Below are positions 42,801 to 52,322 of a DNA stretch of 64,000 nucleotides, in pieces. Under the pieces are notes generated by a model that saw nothing but the letters and a program-made list of their open reading frames with translations, did no database searches and was not told where the DNA came from. The stretch comes from Nitrospirota bacterium (lineage in GTDB: Bacteria > Nitrospirota > UBA9217), in assembly GCA_963754875.1 (NCBI GenBank), contig CAVWHO010000015.1, positions 138,201-202,200 of the forward strand, written 5' to 3'. A program made the translations under genes and the position numbers. Position 1 is the first letter of the stretch, and each line of letters starts with the position of its first letter.

Positions 42801-42841
42801 TCTTCTCCAACCGAGTAGCGCCAGCCTTTATCGAACTCCAT

Positions 42842-42875
42842 AAAAAAAGGCCCCTATACTATGGGGGCCTTTTTT
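42842..42875. terminator. Bidirectional intrinsic terminator
   Basis: AAAAAAAGGCCCC-loop-GGGGCCTTTTTT between convergent genes. Confidence 0.88.
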
Positions 42876-42895
42876 TGTAGGTACTTTTCGTCCTC

Positions 42896-44764
42896 TCAGA
42901 GGAACAGTCCTTCGACGATTTCCGAGTTCACCCGGTGGATCCAGTGGAGGATGTCGTACTTTGCCGGCTTCCGGCAGGTCTTCAAAACAGAGCCCGACAT
43001 AGTAGGCCCTGTCCTGTTTTCTGGCGTGATAGACCGTGGCGCGGACCGTGATGTTGCCCAGCGCGATCATGTTGAAGTTGACGTTCAATTTGGAGCCGAT
43101 GCCGATCGGGCCGCCGACTTCCAGAAGGCAGCCGGCCGGGCCGATGTTCTTTACCACGGCGGCGTTCGATTCATCGGAAAAACCTTCGAGCGAATAGGTC
43201 ACCGACGCGTCCGTGGCCTTTCTCATGAACCGCCTGGTCCCGCCTTTGACGGCCACGGCTTCGGCGATGCTGATCGGATGGTCCTTTCCCTTTACCATGA
43301 CCGGTGACAGTTCTTTCCAGGTCGCCTGATCGCCGATCTCATCGGCGATGATCTTGCTGACCAGCACCTGTCCCGGCTGCGCAACGCCGCAGAGCCGCGC
43401 CGCGATATTGATGTTGTCGCCGATCACCGTATAGTCCATGTGGTCTTCCGAACCCATGTTGCCCATGACGACCTCGCCGCTGTTCAGGCCGATGCCGATG
43501 GCTGATCTGTTTTTCCCCGGCCGCCGCCCTCGCCGCGTTCAAGGCCCTGCAGTAGCTCTGGATCTCCACCGCCGCGCGGACCGCGTTGATCTCCATGCCC
43601 TTCCCTTCGAAGATGGCCATGACCTCGTCGCCCACGAATTTATCGACGATCCCTCCCCAGTGATGGATGACCGTGGTCTGCAGGTTCAGATAGATGTTCA
43701 TGAGACTGACCACGTCCTCGGGGCTCATCTTCTCGGACAGGGACGTGAAACCGCGCGCGTCGGAGAACAGGGCGGTCACGTACTTCCGCTCGCCGCCCAG
43801 CTTCAGCTGCGTCACGTCCCGGTGCTCCTTGATGGAGAGGACCGTTGACTGGGACAGATATTTTTCCATGAGGAGCTTTTCCCGGAGGCTCAGGATCATC
43901 TGGTTGAAGACGTTGGTCAATTTCCCGATCTCGTCGTCGGAGGGGACCGCGACCAGCTTGCGCAGGTCCCCGCGGGCGACGACCTGGATGCCTTCCTCCA
44001 GCGAATCGAGGGGTTTCGTGATCATCGCGGGCGAGCGCGAAGGAGACCAGCAGGCCGACGACGACGAAACCCAGGGCGACCCAGAGATAGGTGATTTTCT
44101 GTTCGCGGATCGCTTCGTTCAGCGCTTTTTCGGAAAGCCCGATCCGCGCGACGCCGAGCTTGAGTTTTTTCGTCTGCAGCATGATGGGGATCGAGGCGTC
44201 CAGAACCGAATCGTTGTTCAACACCGTCTCCTGGAACAGGAGCGCATCGGCCTTCAAAGCCGCCTTATCAGCCGCTTCGGAAAAGACTGCCCCCTTCTTC
44301 GAAAAATCGCTGTGCGCAAAGACGCGTCCCTCGTCGTCGATGACCATGGCATACACGACGCCTTCTCGCTTCTGGATGTCCGTGATGGTGGAAAAGACCG
44401 GCAATTCCTGTTTGGTCAGCAGGCCTTCCTTGCCCACGTTCGCAAGCTGCTGGACCAGGACGGCAGCCCGGCTGTTCAGTTCATTACGAAGGATCGCATT
44501 CTGGCGGGCAAAGGTCACGACGCCGAGAGAAAGAACGGCGAGGCTCAGGACCATGATGAGCGTGCCTGCAATCTTATAGCGGACCTTGATCGAGGAAAAG
44601 AAACGGAACAGCCAGGAATGGCGGAGCGGTTGCTGGACAATCGGCTTTGCCGGTGCAGGCGCAGCTACTGCGCTCCTTTTGTCAGGAGGAGTTTTCTGCA
44701 CGTCCGTTGCCGGCCCTGCGGCACCTTCGTTTTCGGCAATATTATTTCCGCCGTCGTCGCTCAT
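42896..44764 (-). CDS. Membrane class III adenylate cyclase (sensor-HAMP-cyclase) with C-terminal PilZ-like domain; three apparent frameshifts
   Basis: Pieces 43640-44764, 43339-44025 and 42828-43466 join into one protein: LFSDARGFTSLSE, VDKFVGDEVMA, IGIGLNSG, DYTVIGDNINIAARLC, VKGK, then RRFMR..NIGPAG. Confidence 0.85.
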
Positions 44765-45406: not shown

Positions 45407-46255
45407 TCAGCCCTGCTCCCTGCCTGCGGCCTCCCGTGCAAGCATCGCTTTTTTCCGCGCAATGCCCCATCTATAGCCGCCCAGTGCGCCGCTCTTCTGC
45501 AGAACGCGGTGGCAGGGAATGAGGTATGCTACCGGGTTATGGGCCACGGCATTCGCGATTGCGCGCACGGCTTTCGGCTGTTTGATGGTCCTGGCGATGT
45601 CCGAGTAGGACACGATAGTGCCGCGCGGGACGGTGAGGAGCGCTTGCCAGACCTTGAGCTGGAAATTCGTGCCCACGAGGTGGATCGGAAGCGCGCCTTT
45701 CGGATACCTGGAGTTGAATATGCGGTCGACATAGGGCCGGGTGCGCGAAGGGTCCTCGGCAATATCGGCGAGACGCCATTGTTTCCTCAGGTCAGCGACG
45801 ATCTTTTTTCGATCTGCCGGTCCTGCAAAGGCGAGATGGCAGATCCCCCTCCCCGTTACTGCCACGAGACATTCGCCAAAGGGGCTCGGATGGACGCCGT
45901 AGAAGATCTTCACGTGCAAGCCGCGCTTTTTGAACTCGCCCGGCGTCATCGCTTCGCTGTTCACGAACAGGTCGTGTAGCCGGCCCGCGCTCGACAGGCC
46001 GCTTTTATCCGTGACATCAAGCAGGTTTGCAGACTCGTCCATGACCTGCTTTGCGTAGGAAACGGTCAAAAGCTGCAGGAACCGCTTCGGGCTGATCCCG
46101 GCCCAGCGCTTGAAAAGCCGCTCGAAATGGTACTCGCTCAGGTGGACCGCCTGGGCGATTTTCTTTAGATCAGGCTGCTCGCGGAAATGTTTCTCCAGGA
46201 AGAGAATGGCCTTTTCAATGCGCTCGTAATCTTTTGCCAGTGATTCTCGGTTCAT
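45407..46255 (-). CDS. AraC-HTH + methylated-DNA-protein-cysteine methyltransferase (Ada-like, lacking the Zn domain)
   Basis: LSEYHFERLFKRWAGISPK; GTNFQLKVW; IPCHRV active site; GGYRWG. Confidence 0.93.
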   Translation of the reverse strand: MNRESLAKDYERIEKAILFLEKHFREQPDLKKIAQAVHLSEYHFERLFKRWAGISPKRFLQLLTVSYAKQVMDESANLLDVTDKSGLSSAGRLHDLFVNSEAMTPGEFKKRGLHVKIFYGVHPSPFGECLVAVTGRGICHLAFAGPADRKKIVADLRKQWRLADIAEDPSRTRPYVDRIFNSRYPKGALPIHLVGTNFQLKVWQALLTVPRGTIVSYSDIARTIKQPKAVRAIANAVAHNPVAYLIPCHRVLQKSGALGGYRWGIARKKAMLAREAAGREQG

Positions 46256-46379: not shown

Positions 46380-46563
46380 CGGGGAATTGCTGGTATCTCA
46401 GGAGTGATATCTTTTCAGCAAAAGAATTGAATATCGCAGAAGGCGAATGTCAAGAGTAAAGACCTGTATAACCATATAAAGGGCACCTCCAGAGCATACC
46501 AGAGTGGTTAAGCTCTGATATGCTCTTGGGAGAAGAGACCAATCTTATCCCAGGAGGTGCTTT

Positions 46564-47592
46564 ATGAGATTGTACACAGGAATTGATCTACATTCAAGCA
46601 ACAGTTATCTGGCGATCATCGATGAAACTGGTAAACGGGTGTTCAAAAAGAAGCTTCCCAATGATCCGGAACAAATTCTTTCCGCTCTCGCACCATACAA
46701 GGATACGATTATCGGCATCGTCATCGAGTCCACGTACAACTGGTATTGGTTGGTGGATGCACTCATGGCAGAAGGATACAAGGTGCATCTCGCAAACCCT
46801 ACGGAGATCAAGCAATATAAGGGGCTCAAGTATTCAGACGATCAGCATGATGCCTTCTGGCTGGCCGAGATGCTGCGGCTCGGGATCCTTCCCGAAGGCT
46901 ACATTTACCCGAAAGAAGATCGACCAGTCCGTGACTTGTTACGCAAACGAAGCCATCTCGTAAAGCTCAGGACCTCGCTCATCATCAGTTTGCAGAACAT
47001 CATTTGCCGTAACAACGGGTTCCGGCTCAAGACGAACGACGTCAAGGCATTGAAAACGGATCGCGTTGCGCCGTTTCTTGAGCAGAACGAGGACCTGGCC
47101 TTGGCCGGCAAGATCAGCAAGGAGTCCATAGATTTTCTGACGCTCAAGATCAAAACGGTTGAGAGCATCATAGAAGACAGAATGGAGCTGCGCGAACCAT
47201 ACAAAAATCTCCTCACGTTGCAGGGAGTGGGTAAAACGTTGGGACTTACCATCATGCTGGAGACCGGCCCGATCAGCCGCTTCTCGCAAGTCGGCAACTA
47301 TTGCTCCTACTGCCGGAAAGTTTCAACCAAATGGATCAGCAACGATAAGAAAAAGGGCAAAGGGAACAAGAAAAGCGGCAACAAGTACCTGGCATGGGCC
47401 TTTTCCGAAGCTGCCGAGATCGCCCGACGCTATTATCCGGAAGCCCGGGCATATTACCAGCGCAAGATGCAAAAGACCAACGCCATGATAGCCCATCAAG
47501 CCCTGGCCCACAAACTGGCGCGGGCAGCGTATTACATCATGCGAGATGGAGTTCCCTTTATGCCGGAGAAAATCTTTACACAAAGTTCATAG
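46564..47592 (+). CDS. IS110-family DEDD recombinase/transposase
   Basis: GIDLHS, VIESTYNW, KYSDDQHDA; C-terminal GVG..G..I..E and SNDKK..G.KSGNKYL motifs. Confidence 0.96.
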   Translation: MRLYTGIDLHSSNSYLAIIDETGKRVFKKKLPNDPEQILSALAPYKDTIIGIVIESTYNWYWLVDALMAEGYKVHLANPTEIKQYKGLKYSDDQHDAFWLAEMLRLGILPEGYIYPKEDRPVRDLLRKRSHLVKLRTSLIISLQNIICRNNGFRLKTNDVKALKTDRVAPFLEQNEDLALAGKISKESIDFLTLKIKTVESIIEDRMELREPYKNLLTLQGVGKTLGLTIMLETGPISRFSQVGNYCSYCRKVSTKWISNDKKKGKGNKKSGNKYLAWAFSEAAEIARRYYPEARAYYQRKMQKTNAMIAHQALAHKLARAAYYIMRDGVPFMPEKIFTQSS

Positions 47593-47596
47593 GCTG

Positions 47597-47950
47597 GCTG
47601 GGACGGTGAACCTTGCTTAGGGTTGGCAAAAAACCACGAGACCTGATTGGTAATCCGTCCCACCCTTTTATAGCGTTATCAGCATCTTTACTGCCCATGC
47701 CGCGAGCCATCATGGGGCTGGTTAACAACCATAAGACTTGTACATACTCCTGGACACGGCATGGAACCGAAGATTTTCTGGTCCGCCATAAGGCGGAAAG
47801 GGTCATGGATAAAAAGCTTCACCAATGACCTTAATCCCGATGGGTGACTGGTGCAGTGAAGACTGACACCGAAACCGAATGAAACTGCGGCAATGGTAAT
47901 GATGAAGATAACGAAAAGGCTCGGCGAGAAACATTCGTTTCTCGCCACAA
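47597..47950 (+). ncRNA. Predicted bridge/seek RNA of the IS1111-type element
   Basis: Stem-closed loops contain AGACCTG (matches target+core), AAGACTTG and ATGGGTG (matches donor end+core); terminal hairpin 47923-47946. Confidence 0.72.
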
Positions 47951-48219
47951 GATAGCTTTTTCCGCTTGACGGTGCCCTTTAAATGGGTGACCTGAGATGT
48001 TCATCTGGTATTCTCCGCGTACTCCGTTTATGGCCGCGTTTTGGACACAGCAGGCTTACACCTCCGCGGGAAACGTCTCTTCTTCTTAATTCATCCTTCC
48101 TACGTCTTACTTCCTGCTTCTTAATTTAATAAGGATTCATTTGCCGAGCAGGGCCATGATGCGTATAATAGAAAGAAAATGGGTCGAATCCAGCTTCATC
48201 TTCCCCGGAAACGCCATCC

Positions 48220-51762: not shown

Positions 51763-52322
51763 AAGTGAATTACCCCGCAGCAGAGCTGCGGGGCATCCTA
51801 AATGCGCTAGAACCTAAAGCCAACTTGCTCATCATGCTGATACCGAATATACTTTCTTATAACTTCTGCCGTTACTTTGTCGCCAACCGAACGGACAAAG
51901 TAGCCGTCATTCCAGAGTTCTCCTCCCCAAAGTTTTTTCTTTATCTCGGGGAATTCTCGAAACATCATCTTTGCCGATATGCTTTTGATTATCTGTACTA
52001 CCCTCGCTGGAGCATACTTCGGTGGCACAACCAAAAACAAATGCACATGATCATCCATTGCTTCCATCGTATCTATTTCAAATTCATATCGCTCTGCGAT
52101 CTCACGAAATATCTCTTTCAGTCTCGTCGTCATTCGATCGCTGAACAGCTTCCTTCGATATTTTGGTATCCATACAAAATGGTACTTCAGATCATAGACG
52201 CTATGTTTGCTTCTTCTCAATGGGCTCATGGCCCGTATTGTAACAGATTCTCATCCTGACTTCGTCAGGATATCCTTTTCATCCCAGCAGCAGAGCTGCT
52301 GGGTATTTCAGGATGTTTTTAT
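51763..52322 (-). mobile_element. IS200/IS605-family element (tnpA only)
   Basis: Sub-terminal hairpins CCCCGCAGC-AGA-GCTGCGGGG and CCCAGCAGC-AGA-GCTGCTGGG flank tnpA. Confidence 0.88.
51807..52229 (-). CDS. tnpA: IS200-family HUH (Y1) transposase TnpA
   Basis: YHFVWIPKYRR, DHVHL (HUH), KSISA, LW..GYFV, YIRYQ. Confidence 0.96.
   Translation of the reverse strand: MSPLRRSKHSVYDLKYHFVWIPKYRRKLFSDRMTTRLKEIFREIAERYEFEIDTMEAMDDHVHLFLVVPPKYAPARVVQIIKSISAKMMFREFPEIKKKLWGGELWNDGYFVRSVGDKVTAEVIRKYIRYQHDEQVGFRF

Follow-up and report, generated by a model that had tools for sequence, protein, structure and literature searches.

The 3′ non-coding tail of an IS110-family insertion sequence, found in a 64,000-nt stretch of Nitrospirota DNA (the window), appears to encode a bridge or seek RNA in which a donor loop is joined by two target-type loops homologous to each other, as had been predicted from the letters of the window. 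Comparison with relatives indicates that the guides of both target-type loops (modules 1 and 2) follow the target, and that it is module 1 that determines where the element is found. The second target-type loop proved not to be peculiar to the window's element. Because the layout is common to the whole clade sampled, we regard the three-loop arrangement, on sequence evidence, as an old, clade-wide design rather than a local or recent duplication.

The recombinase of the element (342 aa; 46564-47592, + strand) is an IS110-family DEDD enzyme (PF01548, E 9e-20; PF02371, E 4e-11; E 7.5e-8 against IS621), with the RuvC-like DEDD domain and the serine-bearing Tnp domain of that family. Residues D8, E55, D93, D96 and S259 align with the acidic residues and the serine of IS621, and the ISCro4 residues align too; we take these residues to be catalytic, and the IS621 numbering, other than S241, is likewise presumed. 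The intact insertion sequence spans 46467-47989, between TG cores at 46465-46466 and 47988-47989 (+ strand), the left boundary being set from three genomic copies and from empty sites. These three full copies (C15, C5 at 100% and C20 at 98.9%) all have the two-base core TG at both ends and are all preceded by the left flank AGACC (46460-46464, + strand), which the 3′ guide of module 1 reads. Their right flanks differ: ACCTGA in the window (47990-47995, + strand), and ACCCTA and ACACTT at the other two copies. Empty sites read AGACC-TG-ACCCTA, and there is no target duplication beyond the core. The genome also contains two remnants. One (G000 C7, 59909-60258; 75% identity) is a right end that retains modules 2 and 3 but not module 1, and the other (G000 C18, 61243-61395) consists of a left end and the opening codons of the recombinase gene. 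The nearest relatives of the element are in Nitrospirota assemblies.

Outside the gene the element has a left end of 97 nt (46467-46563, + strand) and a right end of 397 nt. Since these unequal ends are accompanied by a 16-nt, 94% complementary subterminal inverted repeat (46472-46487 and 47971-47986), we assign the element, from its sequence, to the IS1111 group of the IS110 family. The order of the guides in modules 1 and 2, with the top-strand guide 5′ of the bottom-strand guide, is also that of the IS1111 group. The left end opens with TATAAC (at 46467), a candidate −10 box, and the terminal part of the right end (47966-47989, + strand) contains TTGACG (47966-47971), a candidate −35 box. 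Joining of the ends would put the two boxes 18 nt apart, as a candidate junction promoter; no circle junction was among the joints listed in four RNA runs. In the window's lineage the left end is one base longer than in most relatives (TATAAC versus ATAATC; 46467-46472). The extra base breaks the handshake match of module 1, weakens the match of the 5′ guide of module 3 and alters the junction −10 box, and copies of this lineage have spread despite it.

Several features surround the element. An Ada-like AraC/methyltransferase gene lies directly to its left (45407-46255, − strand), and further away are an IS200-like Y1 transposase gene with short GC-rich palindromes on its flanks (51807-52229, − strand) and a gene apparently split over three reading frames, possibly by assembly frameshifts (42828-44764, − strand), which its motifs suggest to be adenylate/guanylate cyclase-like. 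At 21 of 58 insertion sites, a hexamer resembling TGTCAA (TTGACA when read on the opposite strand) precedes the core by 8-14 nt; windows of equal size further out have 0-7 each, and the counts are not corrected for kinship. The hexamer is present in the window (46446-46451) and beside all three exact empty sites of the genome. The elements may land just upstream of −35 boxes.

All three homologous modules are present in the tail, with the motifs and stems first quoted for them, and begin with GAACC-N11-TGG at 47608, GAGCC-N10-TGG at 47704 and GAACC-N10-TGG at 47764. Module 1 (47596-47667, + strand) is a stand-alone target-binding loop closed by the stem TGGGACGG/CCGTCCCA (47599-47606/47655-47662). 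It carries a 5′ guide, TAGGGT (47618-47623), a 3′ guide, AGACC plus TG (47639-47645), identical to the left flank and core at 46460-46466, and a handshake, AT (47646-47647). Module 2 (47694-47764, + strand), the second target-type loop, is closed by CCATGCCG/CGGCATGG (47695-47702/47757-47764) and has the guides TGGGGC (47713-47718) and AGACT plus TG (47734-47740, within AAGACTTG at 47733-47740). Its 3′ strand is longer than that of module 1 (from TG to the closing GG, mostly 10-17 nt versus 3) and its handshake is not conserved; its TG is present in 103 of 103 parsed elements, a figure partly built into the parse. Covariance models of the two modules, made from near-identical relatives, score 77.5 bits (R1, module 1) and 72.9 bits (R2, module 2) in the window. 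R2 also matches module 1 (E down to 5e-4 in relatives, 0.085 in the window) and R1 barely matches module 2 (E 9), so that the model support for homology is one-sided, coming from R2 on module 1.

Module 3 (47764-47851, + strand) retains its predicted role as donor loop. Its 3′ guide, ATGGG plus TG (47840-47846), is identical to the right end and core of the element (47983-47989), and in several elements a change between GGGTG and GGATG in the module coincides with a change of the right end. The donor guide, however, sits in a multi-branch loop and not in a simple internal loop. Its 5′ guide region (47769-47778) matches the left end in part only, and worse in the window's lineage; the handshake is AC (47847-47848). 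Because the metagenome loci were fished with the module 3 motif, the constancy of that motif among them is circular.

The predicted fold refines the arrangement of three modules in another respect. A long stem (47674-47913, + strand; 47674-47691 with 47896-47913), predicted on 19 relatives, encloses modules 2 and 3 together and leaves module 1 outside as a free hairpin. Among the 19 relatives, 6 of the 15 pairs of this stem show two-sided changes (0/500 shuffles, and above all slid controls), and the stems of modules 1 and 2 covary in 45 diverse relatives (0/500 shuffles each on the covariation score). As the shuffles take no account of kinship, and the sequences tested are those on which the structures had been drawn, the covariation supports the modelled folds without proving them. 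The tail region folds better than its shuffles (z −4.3, 0/100). A perfect 10-bp inverted repeat forms a terminal hairpin (47923-47946, + strand) that probably marks the 3′ end of the RNA; the terminator scan did not call it, and the promoter and terminator scan was empty inside the tail. Rfam had no family for the tail and returned two chance-level matches. In the four RNA runs, chosen from six candidates, contigs of relatives (82% likeness, at a small share) cover gene and tail alike, and give neither strand nor level. Depth peaks near module 3 in three of the four runs, which we do not take as evidence because summed relatives and motif conservation explain it.

The guides of both target-type modules change with the insertion site among relatives, the covariation that the original prediction had called for, and therefore the motifs of the tail are more than chance resemblances. 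In 93 guide-set groups the mean number of matches to the left flank, out of five, was 3.97 for module 1 (null 1.90) and 3.31 for module 2 (null 1.97); on the right flank, taken as the best of three registers in data and null alike, it was 4.58 (null 3.08) and 3.81 (null 2.98). In each comparison p was 0.0005, without correction for kinship. We also compared 48 sister pairs. In 29 cases, where 6.1 were expected, the 3′ guides of the two modules had changed alike, to identical letters (p 0.0005); for the 5′ guides there were 10 such cases against 2.0, and for a control stretch 4 against 2.5 (p 0.24). Thus, AGAC(C/T)TG is not an invariant scaffold kept whatever the target, and the tail has what is seen in IS110 elements: target-loop guides that covary with the insertion site and a donor loop that matches the element's ends. 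These results bear on two further readings of module 2. A mainly structural or regulatory part, in which it would load a further recombinase dimer, stabilise the RNA or damp recombination by holding the flanks of the element, and take no part in exchange catalysis, is consistent with its more strictly paired stems (95% of cells versus 85% for module 1), its longer 3′ strand and a predicted alternative fold that hides its 5′ guide. A purely structural loop, however, would have no need for guides that change to the letters of module 1, and we consider a structural or regulatory part distinctly unlikely. That module 2 is a vestige, kept like module 1 by gene conversion, would fit the relatedness of the two modules seen with R2. 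Against this, their scaffolds and hairpins stay distinct and the co-change is concentrated at the core-proximal bases; with no intact element lacking module 2 among those examined, this explanation is extremely improbable.

We compared the two modules at the insertion sites themselves (151 site rows, 72 with both flanks). Module 1 fits better at 56 of the 72 sites, module 2 at 4, and 12 are ties; with wobble allowed, the counts are 55, 3 and 14. Where the 3′ guides of the modules differ, the flank follows module 1 in 81 cases, module 2 in 23 and neither in 26, and only 9 of the 23 flanks that follow module 2 are unreadable by module 1 with wobble. The original prediction had gone further, and saw in the two loops a naturally multiplexed recombinase addressing two variants of a repeat family. 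Both loops do keep their scaffold, the TG and target-tracking guides, and in most elements the guides of the two are not the same. The insertion sites nevertheless did not fall into two classes, one for each loop. Indeed, elements with AGACC in module 1 and AGACT in module 2 have AGACC flanks at 7 of 7 sites, and a G-U wobble pair allows AGACT itself to read AGACC. In the C20 copy of this genome both modules carry AGACC, and the 4.3-Mb genome contains three empty AGACCTGACCC sites and no AGACTTGACCC. Likewise, the left flanks of a seven-copy Methylococcales element end in ACTC, the module 1 version, in six of seven cases and in ATTC, the module 2 version, in none. Two equal target loops serving two host-repeat variants are, thus, very unlikely. 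Some insertion through module 2 may occur, since 9-10 of 10 bases match it at 14 of the 72 sites, and at 30 when wobble is allowed.

The two-target-loop layout is widespread among relatives. Loci were drawn from genomes, metagenomes (at least 119 matches) and plasmids, and modules 1 and 2 were not used as bait. Distinct tails lying downstream of a recombinase numbered 90, and in 82 of these the automatic parse recovered both modules. On 49 untrained loci, many of them close kin of the training set, the covariance models detected each of modules 1 and 2 in 45 and the pair together in 44. Among the five loci that fell short, three carry truncations or deletions, and in the other two both modules can be seen by eye. 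The layout occurs in Nitrospirota, Geobacterales, Methylococcales, Wenzhouxiangella, Paraburkholderia and others, at 45-96% protein identity, and these elements thus depart from the exactly two loops (one target, one donor) of IS110 bridge recombinases. For these comparisons, 21 of 146 tails without the module 3 anchor were dropped, rows L142, L146 and L179 were left out for doubtful register, and six tails that failed the automatic parse were accepted by eye. In viral contigs the module 3 motif gave 17 matches, none with a recombinase among the matches listed, and all 17 were left out. The FastTree recombinase tree holds 130 proteins from the 151 rows and seven outgroups; 21 of the 151 rows were dropped, and rows with fewer than 150 aligned residues are absent. 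A retargeted sub-clade (L007-L014, L030, L038) has the handshake TC and a shared target that resembles the end of another insertion sequence, and one genome has 13 matches to its recombinase, at several different targets.

Beyond this range, R1 and R2 gave no match in a sister clade (L280-L283, L285, L289-L304; 29-33% identity for five plasmid members) or in the Rhodococcus and Rhizobium outgroups. The sister-clade modules were read by eye because neither model reaches that clade, and two target-type modules were seen in 14 of 15 distinct elements. The handshakes, also read by eye, are again AT in module 1 and mostly AA in module 2. The 5′ guides of both modules are near-identical (CTAAC) in this clade, and the inner hairpin of its module 1 often carries a long insert. 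Its flanks resemble what we take to be integron attC sites or ends. A Rhodococcus element (30% identity) shows two loops by eye, and the folded tail of a Sphingobium element gave no clear module layout.

Modules 1 and 2 differ in how far they read the target. In 121 guide-set groups, module 1 matched the left flank at positions −1 to −5 in fractions of 0.96, 0.83, 0.70, 0.77 and 0.70 (null 0.31-0.45), compared with 0.85, 0.69, 0.59, 0.58 and 0.57 for module 2 (null 0.37, 0.31, 0.47, 0.45 and 0.45). At +5 on the right flank module 2 was at its null (0.52 versus 0.50) and module 1 above it (0.86 versus 0.60). Module 1 therefore tracks five bases on each side, and module 2 clearly tracks only −1, −2 and +2 to +4. 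The same asymmetry is seen in the 24 sister pairs with both left flanks: when the target changes at −1 or −2, module 1 follows in 16 of 21 cases and module 2 in 10 of 21, and at −3 to −5 they follow in 11 and 2 of 27 cases, respectively.

The handshakes differ as well. In IS110 elements the handshake of a loop matches its partner after strand exchange, and this is the case for modules 1 and 3. The module 3 handshake equals target positions +1 and +2 in 102 of 110 sites (30 of 34 where these are not AC), and the module 1 handshake is identical to the first bases of the left end in 86 of 97, three AG and two AA variants among them. The corresponding dinucleotide of module 2 agrees with the left end in 11 of 97 sites and with the target in 1 of 110 (1.7 expected by chance). 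The window's lineage is an exception, its module 1 being mismatched: the left end starts with TA, which is the dinucleotide of module 2 (7 of 8 sites) and not that of module 1.

The reading we prefer, at slightly under an even chance and from sequence comparison, is a three-loop bridge RNA with a division of labour, in which module 1 would be the seeker and modules 2 and 3 a closed unit for excision or second transfer. By analogy with work on IS621 and IS1111 elements, the circle junction would make a promoter, transcription would run through the recombinase gene to yield the RNA, and one recombinase dimer would bind to each loop. Module 1, as a separately folding 70-nt hairpin comparable to a short seekRNA or a TBL-only RNA, would pair over about 5+TG+5 bases with a handshake that matches the left end of the element, and would team with module 3 for insertion at new sites. 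Modules 2 and 3, in one closed fold, would make up a complete two-loop bridge unit, where the pairing of module 2 would be limited to the core and its closest 2 and 3-4 bases, with a handshake that is neutral. Module 2 would most likely hold the target flank loosely, for excision or circle formation or for the second strand transfer of a direct-transfer route.

The division of labour stays below even because the module 2 handshake is neutral, while a loop tuned for excision should have one equal to the target, and because excision by IS621 is reported to need no target match at all (10.64898/2026.08.31.748434). It also has to accommodate the TA of the window's lineage, which fits module 2 and not module 1 in an element that nevertheless spread, and the 14 sites that fit module 2 almost completely. 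Two related candidates were rejected: an excision-optimised loop with a target-matching handshake, on the 1 of 110 sites above, and a reader of element junctions (target half plus donor half), on inspection of the 3′ guide of module 2, which is like the target flank but unlike the right end. Alternatively, module 2 might be a low-stringency back-up insertion loop that keeps a short, slowly changing clade target as module 1 drifts, so that the element still finds sites after a move to a new host. Module 2 guides do differ less between sisters (132 versus 169 differences in the 48 pairs) and on the tree stay the same within a clade in which module 1 varies. Module 2 has the higher score at four sites, three Geobacterales sites are exact on the left (AGACC) for module 2 where module 1 needs wobble, and module 2 is covalently tied to the donor loop. 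However, module 2 lacks an insertion-favouring handshake, and the flanks at differing 3′ guide positions follow module 1 far more often, with few readable by module 2 alone; we consider the back-up role rather unlikely.

If the division of labour is right, its consequences reach beyond this element. How IS110 and IS1111 elements insert and exit with one RNA is disputed, as insertion-favouring handshakes block excision, and whether a target-only RNA is sufficient is a point on which the seekRNA and bridge-RNA models differ. A clade with a stand-alone precise loop and a closed two-loop unit with a looser loop would allow each step to be deleted or reprogrammed separately. That a whole IS110/IS1111 clade has a natural three-loop bridge RNA with both target loops functional and separately programmable is a real prospect, though we put it somewhat short of an even chance. 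If true, one compact RNA would run precise insertion (loop 1) and excision or second transfer (loop 2), and its loops could be redirected to two different targets simultaneously. Engineered bridge editors, multiplex or direction-controlled, would also gain a natural scaffold with three loops, and the clade supplies more than 100 natural guide/target pairs for pairing rules.

A second target loop was not found in the literature searched (Durrant 2024, ISCro4, ISPpu9, a 2026 review and surveys), whose supplements and figures were only partly covered, and a prior description is possible. IS621 and ISCro4 (Durrant 2024, PMC11208160; Hiraizumi 2026, PMC13626964) share with the window's element a DEDD recombinase with serine, a two-base core, two guides around a small hairpin, and target and donor handshakes that match the partner after exchange; in IS621 the handshakes that pair after insertion drive insertion and block or hinder excision (PMC13626964). 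The guide order of IS621 is the same when the window's element is read on the opposite DNA strand. In contrast to both, the window's element has its RNA 3′ of the gene, a TG core, three loops instead of two, a short-pairing second target loop without handshake match and a donor guide in a multi-branch loop. Many of the 86 models of one survey are reported to deviate from IS621 (10.64898/2026.10.21.760802). More than two loops were also predicted at an IS110 locus with several donor-binding loops (10.64898/2026.08.14.744561); there the extra loops are donor loops at a single locus, and here a second target loop is clade-wide. An ISGsu4-like transposase (the depositor's label) on Paraburkholderia plasmids is 48% identical in protein and belongs to an element with both modules, and ISGsu4, ISGsu5, ISShfr7 and ISShwo5 form one cluster in Durrant's Supplementary Table 1.

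The seekRNAs of ISEc11, ISPa11, ISKpn4 and ISPst6 (Siddiquee 2024, PMC11187229) share with the window's element the 3′ non-coding position, the subterminal inverted repeats and the guide order. IS1111 elements yield short and long RNAs, and the 70-nt unit of module 1 is comparable to the short seekRNA of 82-96 nt (PMC11187229). The long RNAs, of 148-172 nt, are described with one target match (PMC13604230), whereas the RNA predicted in the window would be about 350 nt long, with a second target loop inside the donor unit. The pattern that we propose has a counterpart in CazIS110-1, where a TBL-only RNA performs one strand transfer and the full bridge RNA the other (10.1101/2025.10.25.684509). 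In CazIS110-1, however, a single target loop gives rise to the two RNAs through truncation, whereas the element described here has two separately encoded loops, which could specialise.
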